The translations under genes and the position numbers were made by a program. Under the pieces are notes generated by a model. That model was not told the DNA's origin. It saw only the letters and a list, made by a program, of their open reading frames with translations, and searched no databases. Of a stretch of DNA of 45,289 nucleotides, positions 1 to 45,289 are shown in pieces. Numbering within the stretch: the first letter of the stretch is position 1; every line of letters begins with the position of its first letter. This DNA comes from a virus (taxonomy: Duplodnaviria; Caudoviricetes): positions 1 through 45,289 of IMG/VR virus record IMGVR_UViG_3300048858_000024; one strand, 5' to 3'.

Positions 1-46
1 GCTTCCCAAGCTGAATACGGGGGTTCGATTCCCCTCACCCGCTCCA
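1..46 (+). repeat. attL core = 3' half of host tRNA-Gly(CCC)
   Basis: GCTTCCCAAGCTGAATACGGGGGTTCGATTCCCCTCACCCGCTCCA: anticodon loop TT-CCC-AA, T-loop TTCGATT, CCA end; identical to 45244-45289. The 5' half of the tRNA would lie left of the window. Confidence 0.95.
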
Positions 47-39175: not shown

Positions 39176-40039
39176 ATGGCTAATTCTCTTTTGTTCAAGT
39201 CGCCGACTTCATTCGCCGCTGATCGCCCTGTACTCACTAAAGACCCGATGATCCGGCCCGGTTCGAAGTTTACTTTCGACTTCACGGACGCGCGTTGCCA
39301 CCCTGGCGGCGTGATCACGCAGGGAGCAGTCGCGGCGGGTGCCAAGTTCGCATCACTCGATGCCGCGCCCGTCGAGGCATCTCTTGGCGGAACCAACCCC
39401 GGTATTACAGTAGCTGCTGATGGCTCCATCGTCTTTGATGGAACCGGAGGTTCGGGGCAGTTTCTCCAGATCGGCACCGTGGGGCAGTTCGACATGAGCA
39501 CCGCACCTTACGAGATGGTGTTCATTGCGCACTTGAAAGTCCCGGCCTCTGGTTACACGGCCACGGACAGTTGGAATTTGATGCGCAGTGGCGGCACTGC
39601 CAACGAAAGCCAGTTCTACTTGGGCATGGGCACTGGCGGCTTGGTCCCCCGGTTCTCGGTCGGCAACGGTAGTGGATCGTCGGGCGGCTCGCCTACACTC
39701 GGCAACATCACGCCTGGACAGATCATCCAGCTTGGCGTGCGGTTTGATCCCGGTGCCTATATCGGAAACTTCCGCGATGGCTCGCCTGTCGGCACGCCTT
39801 CTACGTCCGGGGTTACATCGACACTGGGCGCCAACCAGACCTATGGCATCAACTTCCTGAACGTCGGAAAATACACTCTCTCGCGCGTTGAGTTGGTCAA
39901 CATCGATGCGTCTCTCGCCAAGGAAACCGTATGGGGCCTTGCTGACGCCGACAAGCTATCTGCCGCGATGCACATCCAGCGCGACTACCAGTTTTGCAAG
40001 AACTTGCTGACTGCCGCTCCGAAGGTGCCGTTTGCATAA
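39176..40039 (+). CDS. Beta-rich Gly/Ser/Thr protein (lectin-like?)
   Basis: Follows SGNH gene by 1 nt; fold is a guess from composition. Confidence 0.65.
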   Translation: MANSLLFKSPTSFAADRPVLTKDPMIRPGSKFTFDFTDARCHPGGVITQGAVAAGAKFASLDAAPVEASLGGTNPGITVAADGSIVFDGTGGSGQFLQIGTVGQFDMSTAPYEMVFIAHLKVPASGYTATDSWNLMRSGGTANESQFYLGMGTGGLVPRFSVGNGSGSSGGSPTLGNITPGQIIQLGVRFDPGAYIGNFRDGSPVGTPSTSGVTSTLGANQTYGINFLNVGKYTLSRVELVNIDASLAKETVWGLADADKLSAAMHIQRDYQFCKNLLTAAPKVPFA

Positions 40040-40130
40040 CGGCCCGATCTAATCCGTGCACCCTCTGACCTATGCCCCCGCGCATGATCCCGAGAGGCCA
40101 TCCTGATGCCTGATCGCGAAGGAATTGCCC

Positions 40131-40475
40131 ATGCCTGATGGAAACGCCGCACAGGTCCGCGCCATCGCCGACCAGGTGGCAGAGGCGGCAATCCTCAAAT
40201 TCACGTCGGAGCACCCGGTCATCGCGAAAGAGCTGCCCGACGCCAAGGTGCCTGCTCCGCTCAAGTGGGCTGGCGTGATCGTCGCGGGCATCATGTCGGT
40301 AGGTTCTGCCGGGATGCTGTTCTGGATGATCAGCTCCATCAGCCAGATGCAGCTCACCCTGGCCCGCATGGACGAACGCCAGTCGTCAAACACGACGAAC
40401 TGGGAGGCCAAGTTCCGCGGGCTCGATGAGCGCATGGGACGGCTTGAGGCGCAGAAGGAGAAGCGCGATGAGTGA
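40131..40475 (+). CDS. Single-TM coiled-coil protein of lysis cassette
   Basis: WAGVIVAGIMSVGSAGMLFWMI; AAGGA RBS. Confidence 0.7.
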   Translation: MPDGNAAQVRAIADQVAEAAILKFTSEHPVIAKELPDAKVPAPLKWAGVIVAGIMSVGSAGMLFWMISSISQMQLTLARMDERQSSNTTNWEAKFRGLDERMGRLEAQKEKRDE

Positions 40476-41181
40476 TCTACGCAAGATCCAGGCCCACCTT
40501 GGCGTGCCTGCTGACGGGCTGCTCGGTCCTGCCACGCTGGCCGCGATCGCGAAGGCGCTGGGGCTTAGCGAGCCTCGTCACGCACTTGCCCGCCCCGCCG
40601 ACTTCTTCGCCGCTGTACGTAAAATCACCGGGCCGCTCGACAACACGCAGGTCGCGACGATCAACGGTCTACTGGAGGCAGCTGCGCACTGGCCGATCGG
40701 GTGGCTGGCTTACGGGTTCGCGACCGCCTGGGGTGAGTGCAAGCTCCGCCCTATAGACGAGATCGGCAAGGGTCACGGCAAGGCCTACGGAAAGCCGGGT
40801 GCCCGCATGAAGGCCGTCCCGAACCCGCCGAGCTATGGCGGGCAGATCCCCTACGGGCGCGGCTTGGTGCAGCTGACTTGGTGCGACAACTTCGAGTGGG
40901 CCGACAAGGTCTGCGCTGAGGCTGGGCTCATCAAGAAGGGTGACATCCTCGCCAACTTCGACCTCGTGAAGCGGCCGGACATTGCAGCCTTCATCCTTGT
41001 GAAGGGCATGGAAACGGGTGCCTTCACCGGCAAGAAGCTAGCGGACTATATCACCGCCCGCGGCAGCCCTGTTGAGTTTGTACCGGCGCGCCGGATCATC
41101 AACGGGAATGACAAGGCGGCGCAGTTCGGGGGTTACGCTGAGGGCTTCTTGGTGGCGCTGGATGCGGGAGGCTACGCATGA
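40468..41181 (+). CDS. Endolysin, GH19-like with short peptidoglycan-binding N-terminus
   Basis: DGLLGPAT; AY.FATA.GE; YGRGLVQLT; ARRIING. Confidence 0.9.
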   Translation: MSDLRKIQAHLGVPADGLLGPATLAAIAKALGLSEPRHALARPADFFAAVRKITGPLDNTQVATINGLLEAAAHWPIGWLAYGFATAWGECKLRPIDEIGKGHGKAYGKPGARMKAVPNPPSYGGQIPYGRGLVQLTWCDNFEWADKVCAEAGLIKKGDILANFDLVKRPDIAAFILVKGMETGAFTGKKLADYITARGSPVEFVPARRIINGNDKAAQFGGYAEGFLVALDAGGYA

Positions 41182-41480
41182 CCTGGACCACCGCCCTACG
41201 CGGCACCAGCGGCACGATCGAACTCAACCGGCTCGTCGGCTTCGTTGGAGGCATGGCCTACGTCGGATGCGCCAATGTCTTCGTGGCCTGGGACACGATG
41301 GTGAAGGGCCACGACTTCGACATCACCGCCTACTGCCTCTCGTTCCCCGCCGGCCTGGCTGTGGTCGCTGGTGGCACTGCGGCGGCTGTCGCGCTCAAGG
41401 ACCGGCAGGTTGCTACGGCCCATGTCATCCAAGAGACGGGCTCTCAGCCAGGCAAGGCTGCGGAAGGAGCGGCGGCATGA
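41178..41480 (+). CDS. Putative holin
   Basis: Two hydrophobic segments; between endolysin and spanins. Confidence 0.65.
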   Translation: MTWTTALRGTSGTIELNRLVGFVGGMAYVGCANVFVAWDTMVKGHDFDITAYCLSFPAGLAVVAGGTAAAVALKDRQVATAHVIQETGSQPGKAAEGAAA

Positions 41481-41887
41481 CCCTGATCCTCCCCCTGCTC
41501 GCGCACCTCGGTATCCCTGACACCCTTCGTAAGCCAGTCCAGTACCTCGTACTCGCCCTGGTGGCAGCCGGCCTCATCTGGGCAGCCGTGGCAGCCTACA
41601 ACGCCGCAGTAATCGATCGCCACGAAGAGCGCCGCGCCGTCGACCAGATCCCCGCAATCGAGAAGTCGGCCGAGGAACGCGCGATCGATGCGGTCACGAA
41701 CATCATGGCGGAGAAGGAGCGTGAAGCGGAGATCGACAAGGTAGCGCGCGACGAAGCTGCCAAGCCTCCCGAAGCGCGCGCCACCCTAGACCCCTATGCC
41801 ACCGCTGCCGCGTGCACCGTGCTCAGGCAGCAGCATTCCGCCGCCGTGCTGGCCAAGCTCGAGAACTACAAGGAGATGTGCCGGTGA
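41477..41887 (+). CDS. i-spanin (Rz-like)
   Basis: N-terminal TM YLVLALVAAGLIWAAVAAY followed by helical domain. Confidence 0.65.
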   Translation: MTLILPLLAHLGIPDTLRKPVQYLVLALVAAGLIWAAVAAYNAAVIDRHEERRAVDQIPAIEKSAEERAIDAVTNIMAEKEREAEIDKVARDEAAKPPEARATLDPYATAAACTVLRQQHSAAVLAKLENYKEMCR

Positions 41888-42147
41888 AGTACGCCACTTG
41901 CCTGCTCGCCCTGGCACTCGCTGGCTGCAACACCACCAAAGGTGCCATCCTAGTCGGCCACCCACCTAAGGCCGACGTGGTGGCAGTGACCGAAGCCAAA
42001 CCGGTCGCCGGCGCGGACATCCTCACGCCTCAGGGCAATGCGCGGTACAACTCGGCGGTGTCAGCCTGGGGGAATAGGATCGCGAGCGCGGGACTGCGTC
42101 TTTGCCGGTTCTTCAAGGCTGGCGGGATGGATGTGGAGTGCCAGTAG
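41884..42147 (+). CDS. o-spanin (Rz1-like lipoprotein)
   Basis: GTG start; MKYATCLLALALAGC lipobox. Confidence 0.7.
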   Translation: MKYATCLLALALAGCNTTKGAILVGHPPKADVVAVTEAKPVAGADILTPQGNARYNSAVSAWGNRIASAGLRLCRFFKAGGMDVECQ

Positions 42148-42148
42148 C

Positions 42149-42222
42149 TGGTTCCCCGTCATGGATTCGAACCACGATCTGCGCGCTCAAAACACGCGGT
42201 CCTGCCGTTAGACGAACGGGGA
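42149..42222 (-). tRNA. tRNA-Gln(TTG)
   Basis: TCCCCGT/ACGGGGA acceptor; GTC/GAC D-stem; GCGTG-TTTTGAG-CGCGC; CGTGG-TTCGAAT-CCATG; A-CCA. Confidence 0.9.
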
Positions 42223-42223
42223 A

Positions 42224-42295
42224 TGGCACCAGAGGAGGGGATCGAACCCTCGCAGCGCGGTTTTGGAGACCGTCTGGCGTCCTACGCTCTCTGAT
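42224..42295 (-). tRNA. tRNA-Trp(CCA), aberrant D arm
   Basis: ATCAGAG/CTCTGGT acceptor; CGGT-CTCCAAA-ACCG; GAGGG-TTCGATC-CCCTC; G-CCA; D arm reduced to GCGT-AGG-ACGC. Confidence 0.78.
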
Positions 42296-42296
42296 G

Positions 42297-42370
42297 TGGA
42301 GCCCCGCCAGGGAGTTGAACCCTGCTCACCGAGTTACAAGGACGGTGCATCGCCACAATGCTTGAAGGGC
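42297..42370 (-). tRNA. tRNA-Thr(TGT), mismatched anticodon stem
   Basis: GCCCTTC/GCGGGGC acceptor; GCAT/ATGC D-stem; CCGTC-CTTGTAA-CTCGG; CAGGG-TTCAACT-CCCTG; T-CCA. Confidence 0.8.
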
Positions 42371-42371
42371 T

Positions 42372-42447
42372 TGGTCTGGGTGAGAGGTCTCGAACCTCCG
42401 ATCTCCGGCTCCCAAGGCCGGCGCTTTACCAACTAAGCTACACCCAG
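42372..42447 (-). tRNA. tRNA-Pro(TGG)
   Basis: Canonical cloverleaf: CTGGGTG/CACCCAG; GCTT/AAGC; CCGGC-CTTGGGA-GCCGG; GGAGG-TTCGAGA-CCTCT; A-CCA. Confidence 0.95.
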
Positions 42448-42451
42448 ATAA

Positions 42452-42642
42452 TGGTGCAGCCGCCTGCGTCACCATCACCAAAGAGGTGTGGGTCGCGGTC
42501 GCTGTTGTTGGCGGGTCGTTCGGTTCATTGCGCTTACTTATCAGGTCGCGCCTCGCGCTGCAAGGCCGGTTCTGCTTGTCGATCGCCTACTAAACACAAG
42601 CCGCGTTGTGTATCGTGAAAGCCGGTTTCACGAACGACAAGC
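42452..42642 (-). ncRNA. Candidate structured RNA(s) leading the tRNA array
   Basis: 42452-42562 closed by TGCAGC/GCTGCA then CCA; 42575-42642 closed by GCTTGTCG/CGACAAGC around two hairpins. Confidence 0.35.
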
Positions 42643-42662
42643 TTGACCGACTCGCCTCCAAT

Positions 42663-42677
42663 GTTCTCCTAGTGTTC
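42663..42677 (+). promoter_or_regulatory. Alphaproteobacterial LexA (SOS) box
   Basis: GTTC-TCCTAGT-GTTC, 2 nt before ATG at 42680. Confidence 0.78.
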
Positions 42678-42679
42678 TC

Positions 42680-42856
42680 ATGCGCCGCATCGCTCTCGAA
42701 CAACCGGATGGTACGCTCTACAGCTGGCCCGATGGCAAGCCTGTCACCTTCAAGACGGTGTCGCTGGCAAGCCGCTTCGTGGCACCGGGTGAGCGCCTGA
42801 AGCCCATCGACGTGCCTGACGACCACGTGGACGCTGGTGTCTCTGGTCCGCACTGA
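42680..42856 (+). CDS. Small protein behind SOS box (58 aa, not in ORF track)
   Basis: MRRIALEQPDGTLYSWPDGKPVTFKTVSLASRFVAPGERLKPIDVPDDHVDAGVSGPH; TGATG-coupled to next gene. Confidence 0.65.
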   Translation: MRRIALEQPDGTLYSWPDGKPVTFKTVSLASRFVAPGERLKPIDVPDDHVDAGVSGPH

Positions 42857-43116
42857 TGCCGAAGAAGGATCGAAACCGGCCTGCCTGGACGGAGAGCCTT
42901 GGCGCCCTGATCGCTGCCGGACGCGAGGTGCGAGCCTGGTGCGATACCTGTGACGCCCCGTTCGTGGTGGTGGATTTGGTGAGGCTGGCGGCTCTCAAGG
43001 GAGCGTCGTATAGTTTATGGAATCGCCACACCAAGTGCCGGCTCACCGAGGGCTGTGAAGGCTGGAACCGCTTCTATTGCGATGGGCGGAGCATGTTTGA
43101 GAAGATGAGGGACTAG
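42856..43116 (+). CDS. Small Zn-ribbon protein
   Basis: VRAWCDTC...VDLVRL...KCRLTEGC. Confidence 0.75.
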   Translation: MPKKDRNRPAWTESLGALIAAGREVRAWCDTCDAPFVVVDLVRLAALKGASYSLWNRHTKCRLTEGCEGWNRFYCDGRSMFEKMRD

Positions 43117-43313
43117 CTCTCAGCCGGTGTCTGGATCAGGTGGAGACGCCAAACCCCGTCGCCCCGGTCCTCGACGCGATCAACAATGGCGTGATCATCG
43201 CCTAACTTGACGGCATGGCCGGTCCAATCCTTCCGGCCTCTGTCGTGCCAAGCGAGGGCATCTGCGTGAATGTCCGCCCACATACCAGCGGGGGTGACTG
43301 TGATCTGCATCAT
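43113..43313 (-). CDS. Hypothetical protein
   Basis: Last gene of coupled right-end operon. Confidence 0.6.
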   Translation of the reverse strand: MMQITVTPAGMWADIHADALAWHDRGRKDWTGHAVKLGDDHAIVDRVEDRGDGVWRLHLIQTPAES

Positions 43314-43561
43314 GCGCCCTCAGCGATGGCCGCATCGATCATCGTGTGGTAGACGGAGATCGGCTGAACCCCTTCACCTCGAAGTACGATCAGGTGGTCA
43401 CCGGCGTCTAGCATCGCATCACTCGGCTCCCTGATCGCCTCCAGCACCGCCTTTACGCTCTCGATCACCTGCTCCTGAAGCTCAGGCTCAAGCGCGTCGA
43501 AGCTGTCGGTGCCGCTTTCCTTGAGGACGAGGGCGCGGGCTGCTCTAGCGAGTGGCGTCAT
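43310..43561 (-). CDS. Hypothetical protein
   Basis: AIREPSDAML...MIDAAI motif; GGAG RBS. Confidence 0.7.
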   Translation of the reverse strand: MTPLARAARALVLKESGTDSFDALEPELQEQVIESVKAVLEAIREPSDAMLDAGDHLIVLRGEGVQPISVYHTMIDAAIAEGA

Positions 43562-43694
43562 GTCGTATCTCCGGTCCAAACCGCATCGTCTTTAGCTCTG
43601 CTGCCAGAATGCGCAGCCTGATACTATCGCCCACCCTGCCCTGGCGTTGGAGCTTCACGGCGTTGCGGATGATCTGGTGTTGTTCGTCGGTCAT
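43545..43694 (-). CDS. Hypothetical protein (49 aa, not in ORF track)
   Basis: MTDEQHQIIRNAVKLQRQG...; ATGA coupling. Confidence 0.5.
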   Translation of the reverse strand: MTDEQHQIIRNAVKLQRQGRVGDSIRLRILAAELKTMRFGPEIRHDATR

Positions 43695-43948
43695 GGCGAC
43701 TCGGTAACATCGGGCGCGGGGTGTAGGAAAGCGCTGCTTTGTCGCTTCATGTCCACCGCGCCCTCAGCCATCCAGTCAGCGATGATCCGCATGCAGCTTG
43801 CTGTGTCGTCACCGGTCGTTTCGATCAGCGGGCCATCCATGTAGACGAGGCGGCTGCGGATTGAGCCATCCGGCTGCCGGTAGAACTCGACCGTGCACAG
43901 GTGGCTGCCCTGTGGCTCGGCTTGGCGAAGGCTTACTAGTTCACCCAT
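43691..43948 (-). CDS. Hypothetical protein
   Basis: AAGGAG RBS before MGELVSL. Confidence 0.65.
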   Translation of the reverse strand: MGELVSLRQAEPQGSHLCTVEFYRQPDGSIRSRLVYMDGPLIETTGDDTASCMRIIADWMAEGAVDMKRQSSAFLHPAPDVTESP

Positions 43949-44129
43949 CGTGCTGCTCCTTGCTGGCGAGGAAGGCATTACCGTTTGCCCGTTCGATGAC
44001 CGTCTGCGCGAAGTCGTGATCGCAAACCTTCATTCCCGGCCATGTCCAGACGACGCGGGCAACCTCGTTCCACTCTTGCGCTGTGAGCCCGCCGAGCCTC
44101 ACCTCACCCGGCTTGAGTTCCTTGGTCAC
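43941..44129 (-). CDS. Hypothetical protein
   Basis: Coupled ORF. Confidence 0.6.
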   Translation of the reverse strand: MTKELKPGEVRLGGLTAQEWNEVARVVWTWPGMKVCDHDFAQTVIERANGNAFLASKEQHDG

Positions 44130-44398
44130 TCCCGCACGCCTTCAAGGGCGGCGATGATGCGCAGCCAGTCGCGATCCTCCAGCACTAAGTCTTGGCTGTC
44201 GGGCGCCACACCTAAGAGGCGCGTCTTGATCAGGCGAGCCAAGTCGTCATTCGCTGGTGAAGGTGAAGCGGACGTCGACCTATGGCGTGCACAGAAAGCC
44301 TCATCCGCTGGCGCGCGTTTCCGGCAATTCGGGACGATGCACCATGCATCCTCCGGCACACTCTGGGCGACGGCGAAGACCTTTGGGTCACGGTTCAT
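44126..44398 (-). CDS. Hypothetical protein with Cys/His Zn motif
   Basis: CIVPNC...FCARH. Confidence 0.65.
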   Translation of the reverse strand: MNRDPKVFAVAQSVPEDAWCIVPNCRKRAPADEAFCARHRSTSASPSPANDDLARLIKTRLLGVAPDSQDLVLEDRDWLRIIAALEGVRE

Positions 44399-44772
44399 GG
44401 CAAGGTTTCTCCGTTTTCTTTACACGTCGCTCGGACCTGCAAAGATTGTGCGAGTTTCTTTCTGTTCGTGCCCGCTACCGCCCCTTGAACAGACTCAGGA
44501 ACCCACATGGCCTCCCGAACGACTCCGTGATGGCCGCACTCGTGGCAGCCGCTGCCTCGGCTATCAAAGCCGTACCCGCAGCCCGAGCAAGCGGCGGTCC
44601 ACGATACCGAGCGGCATAGACCGCCTTCGACGAAAGCCCATGACCGCCGCCGATCAAGCCTTCGACCCACGCGCGCGTCTGCATCCTCCCAGGTGATGGG
44701 CTGATCGTCGTGCTCGATCATGCCGTCGCTGGTGATGGTGGTCTCGCCACGAACGATGACGCTGCCGGCCAT
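44395..44772 (-). CDS. Hypothetical Zn-finger protein
   Basis: CSGC...GCHECG. Confidence 0.65.
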   Translation of the reverse strand: MAGSVIVRGETTITSDGMIEHDDQPITWEDADARVGRRLDRRRSWAFVEGGLCRSVSWTAACSGCGYGFDSRGSGCHECGHHGVVREAMWVPESVQGAVAGTNRKKLAQSLQVRATCKENGETLP

Positions 44773-45191
44773 TAGCGCGCCTCCCCTTGGGTGGAGAGGC
44801 GGGTGATAGCCTCAATCCGCGGGAGCATCTGGCGCGAACACCAGAAGTCGTCCTCGTGACCGGCGACCGTGTTGAGGTCGACCAGGAAGTCTCCAGCCTC
44901 TTCCTCAACCTCGCACTCTGCCTTCAGCGCGTCCCAAAGCTCCTTGGCCTGTTCGTCGCTCCGAGCCGGGAAATTGGCGATCGTGAAGACACGGTTATCC
45001 TCATGATCAGACCCGCAAAGGTGCACACCGGGGAAGTGCGGTGCAAAGGTGCGATTGGCCCAGCGGATCTCGCTCTCGCCGGGGCGCTGCCGTGTAGTTT
45101 CGGCAGTTGGCCAAGCGCGAGTTTCGGGGTGCGGTAAACCCGCGGCAACAACCCCCGCGATTCCCGATTTGTTCGGCAGATGTTCGTGCAT
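44772..45191 (-). CDS. Hypothetical protein
   Basis: GAGGAGG RBS before MHEHLPNK; TAATG coupling. Confidence 0.65.
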   Translation of the reverse strand: MHEHLPNKSGIAGVVAAGLPHPETRAWPTAETTRQRPGESEIRWANRTFAPHFPGVHLCGSDHEDNRVFTIANFPARSDEQAKELWDALKAECEVEEEAGDFLVDLNTVAGHEDDFWCSRQMLPRIEAITRLSTQGEAR

Positions 45192-45243
45192 TAGAAACCT
45201 CCTCAAACGGGAGATTTCTGCGGGTTATAGGAAGCCGTCGTAT

Positions 45244-45289
45244 GCTTCCCAAGCTGAATACGGGGGTTCGATTCCCCTCACCCGCTCCA
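45244..45289 (+). repeat. attR core
   Basis: Identical to 1-46; not preceded by a tRNA 5' half. Confidence 0.95.

Follow-up and report, generated by a model that had tools for sequence, protein, structure and literature searches.

A four-tRNA cassette with a structurally variant tRNA-Trp in a temperate siphophage of a probable sphingomonad host

The phage genome and the layout of the cassette

The window, i.e., the whole stretch of DNA analyzed here (45,289 bases), represents an entire virus record bounded by a 46-base terminal repeat and encoding a terminase, a major capsid protein, a repressor, an endolysin, a tape measure protein, and an integrase-like protein (weak SAM-domain match). Since the repeat matches tRNA-Gly(CCC) and is accompanied by such a set of phage genes, the record is that of an excised, complete temperate siphophage. 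Its host is probably a sphingomonad, judging by sequence relationships: the nearest named relatives of the endolysin reside in Novosphingobium and Sphingomonas genomes. For this reason, sphingomonad genomes were used as host proxies (mainly the tRNA set of G001), and all host comparisons below refer to them and not to the phage's own host. The tRNA cassette and its surroundings comprise the following features:

1..46, plus strand: left att repeat, the same 46 nt as the 3′ end of Novosphingobium tRNA-Gly(CCC)
41884..42147, plus strand: o-spanin-like lipoprotein gene (lipobox LAGC), the last of the endolysin–holin–spanin cassette, converging on the array
42149..42222, minus strand: tRNA-Gln(UUG), 74 nt, U1-A72, anticodon stem without CNG
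42224..42295, minus strand: tRNA-Trp(CCA), 72 nt, non-canonical, with a 1-nt linker (A8), a 4-bp D hairpin, and an AGG triloop
42297..42370, minus strand: tRNA-Thr(UGU), 74 nt, built on an A8-bearing scaffold widespread in phages, anticodon stem of only 3 bp
42372..42447, minus strand: tRNA-Pro(UGG), 76 nt, canonical cloverleaf with C1-G72, A73, and G35-G36-G37, paired CNG kept in the anticodon stem
42448..42534, minus strand: leader of the predicted precursor, with a putative start near 42528; an RNA contig reaches 42511
42535..42563, minus strand: predicted sigma70-type promoter (−35 TTGCAG, 17-nt spacer, −10 TAAGTA)
42663..42677, plus strand: GTTC-N7-GTTC site preceding two small rightward ORFs, the right-hand neighbor of the cassette
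45244..45289, plus strand: right att repeat, the same 46 nt as the left one

An earlier note on this DNA described a minus-strand array of Pro-UGG, Thr-UGU, Trp-CCA, and Gln-UUG genes, and ARAGORN calls exactly these four in the window, with the same coordinates and anticodons. The further details of that description were confirmed as well: CCA is encoded in all four genes, the spacers are single bases (A, C, and T), one base (42148) lies between the last CCA and the o-spanin stop codon, and a simple scan reveals no terminator-like site between the spanin gene and the array. An assembly artefact was considered and rejected, as a single contig of the probable source run (depth ~64) spans 40000–42706 with zero differences.

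The endolysin matches PHROG 181; the holin and the spanin, with no family match, owe their names to gene order and sequence. To the right of the cassette, the GTTC-N7-GTTC site at 42663–42677 is presumably the alphaproteobacterial LexA box motif, and a second such site is found at 45171–45185. Other elements in the probable source run have contigs that share 42579–42858 but lack the array, so the right border of the cassette is placed near 42579. Just beyond it, two neighboring inverted repeats are present at 42594–42632. The segment 42576–42632 displays 75% identity (E 3e-4) to the start of an o-spanin gene in another locus (L018), where both repeats are partly retained; the repeats may be a remnant, an operator, or a product of chance.

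The tRNA genes differ in their closeness to the canonical form. Their Rfam RF00005 scores are 70.2 bits for Pro, 48.1 for Gln, and 32.1 for Thr, with Trp below the cut-off of 29 bits; the 50 tRNAs of G001 score 48.6–76.4 bits. All four genes possess a 7-bp acceptor stem (with one mismatch in Thr), a T-arm, and a 7-nt anticodon loop. At the same time, Pro and Gln show the canonical two bases (U8, 9) ahead of the D stem, together with a full D-loop and an anticodon stem of 5 bp; Thr departs with A8 and its 3-bp stem, and Trp with one linker base, a triloop, and a predicted extended arm.

Tandem 77-base repeats, each containing the tRNA-Gly(CCC) 3′ end, which is the integration site of this phage, were observed at G381:C6:44787–45041 (L269, L276, and L278). 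A role of the array in tRNA-dependent lysogeny, as outlined in the available text of PMC10865867, was ruled out: instead of an att core of ~10 bp that leaves the host tRNA not rebuilt, the phage has a 46-bp core stretching from the anticodon to CCA, and the array lacks a Gly gene although attB is tRNA-Gly(CCC).

Transcription of the cassette

Two observations support the suggestion of the earlier note that the cassette has a separate promoter: a sigma70-like site on the minus strand and RNA contigs confined to the array region. The site (TTGCAG-17-TAAGTA, 42563–42535) is the sole match in the 45-kb genome to a pattern written after the site had been seen; a stricter standard promoter scan missed it and returned only a chance-level site on the plus strand. 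In an RNA run from another study (X2), two contigs cover 42118–42511 with zero differences at depths of 5 and 14, these being two low-depth contigs of one run that carry neither strand nor level. In the rest of 40000–45289, X2 covers nothing except the att end, where a contig of host tRNA-Gly lies. Because X2 is kept as contigs, the absence of lysis-gene RNA is weak evidence on its own, and the RNA may originate from another phage carrying the same cassette. Overall, there is a hint of a discrete transcript, or precursor, of the array region.

In a DNA run from a third study (X3), 42143–42274 is represented with one difference and 42279–42532 with three differences and a gap. The flank at 42513–42671 displays 19 differences in 159 bases, i.e., the identity is ~99% in the array vs. 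88% in the right flank, and the first contig diverges just beyond the Gln end.

Folding of the whole precursor revealed nothing significant (z −0.84). A leader hairpin at 42451–42475 (minus strand), which stops three bases before Pro and bears CCA near its 3′ end, was noted by eye and is absent from the precursor fold.

Compactness and relatives of the array

The earlier note regarded the compactness of the array as its surprise and overlooked the non-canonical bodies of two of the four tRNAs. The array is indeed ultra-compact, but this is not unusual, since gaps in viral arrays are most often 1 nt. A compact triple of CCA-encoding tRNAs is harbored, according to an estimate from a pattern search, by ~1000 of the IMG/VR stretches stored. 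In the 128 loci listed from these matches, a sample chosen for compactness, gaps of exactly 1 nt account for 216 of the 1005 between neighbors, and at least four tRNAs with 1-nt gaps are found in 8 loci. The cassette resembles the small arrays of temperate phages (e.g., Met-Lys/Arg-Thr-Gly, 11 of 28 small arrays), which comprise 3–5 tRNAs with 1–3-nt spacers and encoded CCA, but it differs from them in its isotypes, in the strand opposite to the late genes, and in the non-canonical Trp. Thr(UGU) occurs in 12 of 17 distinct small viral sets.

Close relatives of the whole array were found neither in annotated phages, nor in viral contigs (searched with a Pro-Thr and a Trp-Gln pattern), nor among 114 endolysin-related loci. 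An array behind the spanin gene is present in just one of these 114 loci (three duplicates), namely in L092, which carries other isotypes (Ser, Ser, and Thr) that share their strand with the lysis genes, i.e., in the orientation opposite to that in the window. A solitary Gln gene with 96% identity to the window Gln is situated beside other genes in a related phage. Such variability of content, place, and orientation is like that of accessory genes. The L092 array (L092:7666–7917) follows a prophage o-spanin gene in a similar lysis cassette from a bin labeled Methylocystis, and its Ser-CGA gene appears degenerate.

A compact-pair pattern was matched in 18 of 401 sphingomonad genomes, and no compact tRNA pair was seen on inspection in 16 of these. 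The remaining two are a short contig with an Asn-Met pair and the genome G339, where a compact, phage-like Ser-Ser-Tyr-Gln array (L279:10009–10359) is embedded amid host-type genes; no protein similarity to the phage under study was found within 20 kb of it.

Fold and covariation of the tryptophan tRNA

The window tRNA-Trp has 15 bases from the acceptor stem to the anticodon stem vs. 18–19 in canonical genes, and this short type makes up 4 of the 39 distinct Trp-CCA genes of the compact-array sample (window included). A search with the acceptor start and anticodon arm fixed and with the D segment and variable loop left free yielded 50 hits (the window, 18 viral, and 31 metagenome), corresponding to 35 distinct sequences. 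In this family, the D segment consists of one base, a 4-bp stem, a triloop (NGG in 33 of 35), and three further bases; G73 is present in all 35, and the encoded CCA is absent in 10. The D hairpin accounts for 127 of 140 pairs compared with a mean of 85.3 after shuffling, a value of 127 being reached by 0 of 5000 shuffles; as the family members are related, such shuffle counts should not be read as probabilities.

In 23 forms, whose variable loop is 5 nt long, the three bases following the hairpin form a predicted extra helix with that loop. Its pairing is 82.6% as compared with 55.6% in shuffled and 25–44% in slid sequences, Watson–Crick pairs number 50 of 69 vs. 25.5 after shuffling, and changes on both sides are seen at all three pairs. 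The same positions of 423 canonical viral tRNAs exhibit no Watson–Crick excess (378 vs. 375 of 1269). The proposal of the helix came from the viral sequences and preceded the metagenome scan; the ten long-loop sequences found afterwards display 26 of 30 pairs. The helix is lacking in the 11 members with a 4-nt variable loop (12 of 33 pairs); one form with a 6-nt variable loop was excluded from the helix counts. The whole structure is 94.5% paired, and RNAalifold, unaided, predicts the same extended arm, in which base 43 is bulged; folded as a single sequence, the window Trp does not adopt the proposed structure.

Thus, covariation strongly suggests that the extra helix lengthens the anticodon arm to ~8 layers in 23 of the 35 forms. 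In the window Trp, the predicted helix (CAG with CUG) is located above the 27.43 pair, which is unpinned, and an anticodon stem of 4 bp. This pair is open (A.C) in the window and closed in 11 of the 23 long-loop members; the view of the mismatch as a plain 4-bp stem was abandoned after the covariation analysis. The longer anticodon arm would compensate for the small D-arm. According to Steinberg and colleagues, the normal D-anticodon domain is said to comprise twelve layers, which 8 + 4 would match.

Of the bacterial tRNA-Trp identity set, the window Trp retains G73, the CCA anticodon, and A1-U72 (the identity elements used here are listed in the accessible part of PMC9976931). The B. subtilis Trp pairs G2-C71, G3-C70, and G4-C69 are absent, their places being taken by U2.G71, C3-G70, and A4-U69. 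The earlier note held that pseudogene-level scores for all four tRNAs with no conservation in relatives would speak against the array; the Trp score is indeed low, whereas its architecture is conserved and covaries. Being shared and covarying at the sequence level, it marks a tRNA that is not decayed.

Among known molecules, tRNA-Pyl and type I mitochondrial tRNA-Ser(UCN), as described in the available text of PMC7609411, are similar in the single base that separates the acceptor stem from the D stem, the small D-loop, and the elongated anticodon stem; the mitochondrial tRNA also resembles the phage Trp in that the GG and the T-loop motif are kept. The phage Trp differs from both in its triloop D-arm, ~8 layers and a bulge where those tRNAs have 6 bp, a paired variable loop, the CCA anticodon, and its occurrence in phages, which must use bacterial machinery. 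With tRNA-Pyl in particular, it shares only the 1-nt linker, the small D-loop, and G73, without the CUA anticodon, G1:C72, 6-bp anticodon stem, and 3-nt variable arm of that class. The accessible text of the same review of non-canonical tRNAs does not mention "phage" or "virus", and a description of the triloop-D/extended-arm Trp fold was not found in the openly available literature searched.

Other unusual tRNAs were encountered as well. Escherichia phage Av-05 carries an unannotated tRNA-Trp (L404:181–262) with approximately nine extra bases after the acceptor stem and, beyond this insertion, a 4-bp hairpin with a TGG triloop. A short D region is found in 24 of 966 distinct tRNA genes of the compact-array sample (e.g., in L132, L134, L160, L181, L221, and L234), including Arg, Ala, Gln, Met, Cys, and Gly isotypes, several of them with a GG mini-loop and a 6-bp anticodon stem. 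Their sequences suggest that short-D forms of other isotypes may constitute a wider class.

Occurrence and annotation of the tryptophan tRNA

A single Trp-type match is found in 80 of 81 sphingomonad genomes, with a length of 73 nt in 79 of them and 91 nt in one; the short form (69 nt) is present in none of the 81. Likewise, the short-Trp patterns occur in 0 of 151 alphaproteobacterial genomes and in none of 101 phylum-wide genomes. The cultured phages BDU-MI-1, vB_CbaS-RXM, Manuel, Annadreamy, and Wakanda carry related forms in which the extra helix is the same and the D-loop is slightly longer. The form from Bradyrhizobium phage BDU-MI-1 is annotated as a pseudo-tRNA, and those of Manuel and Annadreamy are unannotated. 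The related cultured-phage forms score 56–72 bits and host genes 44–53 bits with the covariance model R1, which separates poorly, as some canonical phage Trp genes reach 59 bits. Default ARAGORN finds 24 of the 35 family genes and misses 11. The metagenome carriers are not classed as viral; most of the genes lie within tRNA arrays, and several repeat viral contigs. A second Trp-CCA was not detected in the fetched flanks of any locus, even in arrays of more than 20 tRNAs. The array is an ordinary kind of phage accessory locus, and its Trp would be a new structural variant of tRNA.

Few tRNAs that serve bacterial ribosomes are known to depart from the cloverleaf; a family of phage genes combining a triloop D-arm with a compensating, longer anticodon arm would, if true, add one. 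Such a family would test whether phages evade tRNA-cutting immunity by shape as well as by sequence. Annotation is affected too: beyond the 11 genes missed by ARAGORN, Rfam overlooks the window Trp, and the BDU-MI-1 relative is filed as a pseudo-tRNA; if the fold is real in other isotypes, a wider class would be mislabeled as pseudogenes or missed by annotation tools.

Threonine, glutamine, and proline tRNAs and nuclease motifs

In the window Thr, U30.U40 and C31.C39 are unpaired, U6.C67 is mismatched, and both the CNG motif and the UAAUCA site of AriB are lacking. The Thr scaffold family comprises at least 91 distinct members, from at least 121 loci. Among these matches listed, A8 is universal (91 of 91), the 31-39 pair is open in 35, CNG is kept by 44, and the AriB site by 26. 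The U30.U40 mismatch is unique to the window among the 91 relatives listed, so it may represent decay. The Thr(UGU) of G001 has a paired CNG, A37, and the UAAUCA site; compared with it, the phage Thr(UGU) has changed positions 39–41, a shorter stem, and neither CNG nor UAAUCA. The AriB site is absent from the Thr(UGU) of three other sphingomonad hosts.

These motifs are known from anti-phage nucleases acting in E. coli. As reported in the accessible text of PMC12445682, P2-OLD prefers paired CNG and A37, and, per the available part of PMC12409363, the site of AriB (PARIS) is UAAUCA. The features of the OLD-resistant phage Thr(UGU) and of the T5 tRNAs defeating AriB in the same sources, i.e., altered CNG, a shortened stem, and changed positions 39–41 in the same isoacceptor, are present in the window Thr. 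The published OLD-resistant tRNAs, judging by the accessible text of PMC12445682, are shortened at the top of the stem and not beside the loop, whereas the window stem is opened at the loop end (two pairs); moreover, its host is a probable sphingomonad, and its resistance is a prediction. According to the available portion of a preprint (10.64898/2026.07.10.737580), the five tRNAs depleted by OLD include Thr(UGU) and Pro(UGG). In the consulted parts of these sources, neither Trp nor Gln is named as a main target of OLD or AriB. Among the 17 distinct small arrays from viruses, the tRNAs met most often (Gly-UCC, Thr-UGU, Met-CAU, and Pro-UGG) bear four of the five OLD-depleted anticodons; the CAU genes may be Ile2 and not fMet.

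CNG is kept by the phage Pro and Trp. In G001, it occurs in all four cognates and in 19 of 45 distinct tRNAs. As candidates for such nucleases, OLD-like Toprim domains were found in 11 and DUF4435 in 3 of 61 sphingomonad genomes, the Toprim matches including DNA-cutting proteins of the Gabija type. The window Gln shares 50 identities with the G001 Gln(CUG) class vs. 38 with G001 Gln(UUG), and a Gln(CUG)-like body presumably suits GluRS1 rather than GluRS2. The window Pro shares 56 identities with the G001 tRNA-Asp, which has the same anticodon stem, vs. 57 with tRNA-Pro(UGG).

As to Trp, no anti-phage nuclease reading its D-arm was found in the literature searched; retron Eco2 cleaves tRNA-Trp in the acceptor stem, as stated in the accessible part of PMC12916289. 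For retron Eco7, a strong promoter alone suffices, according to the available text of PMC11555353.

Function of the cassette

The earlier note had proposed both replenishment of nuclease-destroyed tRNAs and supply of rare codons; the former is favored here on the grounds of sequence features, and the latter fits ACA and CAA, but CCA only poorly and UGG not at all. With a rough probability of 55%, the locus would be an accessory cassette of a temperate phage, likely with its own promoter, whose tRNAs have kept the main charging signals and anticodons on remodeled bodies and likely replace host tRNAs cut by nucleases. A single precursor from this promoter would carry all four tRNAs, and the cassette may be expressed in the lysogen. 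Maturation of tRNA generally involves RNase P cleavage at the 5′ end and trimming at the 3′ end; here, RNase P would cut each 5′ end, and the 3′ side would be trimmed by one base to the encoded CCA. The phage tRNAs would be charged by host synthetases and would decode, their remodeled bodies would resist cleavage, and, by analogy with the cases of OLD, PARIS, and retron Eco7, they might refill the pools depleted by tRNA-cutting defenses. For Trp, a matching anti-phage enzyme was not found in the literature searched. Against this reading also count the Thr scaffold relatives, which avoid these nucleases only in part, the sphingomonad hosts whose own Thr(UGU) has no AriB site, and the CNG kept in the phage Pro and Trp.

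More tentatively, and with clearly less than even odds, the Trp could represent a working fold evolved in phages: a triloop D hairpin on an 8-layer arm, with base pairs replacing the tertiary core, which would be charged while staying unseen by shape-reading nucleases and would extend to other isotypes.

It is unlikely that the tRNAs mainly boost the supply for codons used more by the phage than by its host. Two codons do fit: ACA and CAA are enriched 2.5- and 2.4-fold over the host proxy, ranking 6 and 7 of 61 (52 phage genes vs. 91 host-proxy ORFs), with the ratios inflated by filtering of the proxy at GC3 ≥ 0.72. However, CCA (1.3-fold, rank 23) and UGG (0.94-fold, rank 34) do not follow, none of the five most enriched codons is served by a phage tRNA, G001 already encodes all four cognates, like sets occur in viral loci of 30–32% GC (L136 and L199), and the remodeled bodies are left unexplained. 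In the accessible parts of the literature, no codon effect is reported for the set of PMC10264068, and codon patterns are host-dependent in PMC13015707.

The odd Trp and Thr RNAs might instead be decoys or non-translating mimics binding nucleases, synthetases, or sensors, and the low Rfam scores (Thr 32 bits, Trp below 29), the lack of U8 and of a normal D-loop in Trp, and the 3-bp anticodon stem of Thr would agree with that. Still, this appears quite unlikely: G73, the anticodon loop, the T-arm, and the acceptor stem are kept (in Trp, partly preselected, since the anticodon arm and the first acceptor pairs belonged to the search pattern), and no locus has a second Trp-CCA in the fetched flank. 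Furthermore, published phage tRNAs facing OLD replace the depleted tRNAs and do not inhibit the enzyme, as far as the available text of PMC12445682 and of the preprint 10.64898/2026.07.10.737580 goes.

Less probable again is a passenger array in early decay, acquired from a larger phage and no longer under selection. The rarity of arrays behind the spanin (1 of 114 endolysin-related loci) and the U30.U40 mismatch, unique among the 91 Thr relatives listed, are compatible with it, but the oddities of Trp are shared and covarying, those of Thr recur among the matches listed (A8 in all 91, and 35 with the 31-39 pair open), and in X3 conservation is higher in the array than in its flank, the array also being present in the RNA run X2.

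For the open 27.43 pair of the window Trp, a parallel exists: in E. coli, a tRNA-Trp with an unpinned top pair increases UGA readthrough ~2.5-fold, and the tRNA-Trp(CCA) of Blastocrithidia-like type, which has a 4-bp stem, shares this unpinned pair of the anticodon stem (available text of PMC13092985). Readthrough extending or deregulating proteins is nevertheless highly improbable, because TGA is the main stop: it closes 34 of the 52 genes in the phage, four lysis-region genes among them, compared with 39 of 63 ORFs in the host proxy, and by a crude count it leads the ORF stops of 26 carrier loci as well (152 of 293); moreover, the pair is closed in 11 of the 23 long-loop members. The Blastocrithidia-like tRNA, in turn, has a normal D-arm as opposed to the non-canonical body of the window Trp, no sign of the lowered UGA stop use that accompanies it is seen in the window, and the word "phage" is absent from the accessible text of that paper.

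Finally, a leftward transcript whose main role is to slow the lysis genes, as an antisense RNA or by collision, would suit an array converging on the spanin gene with no terminator-like site and an RNA contig extending 30 nt into that gene, but it is hardly credible given the shortness of this overlap and the fact that position and orientation are not conserved, as the related L092 array lies in the sense orientation and the 96% identical Gln stands alone elsewhere.
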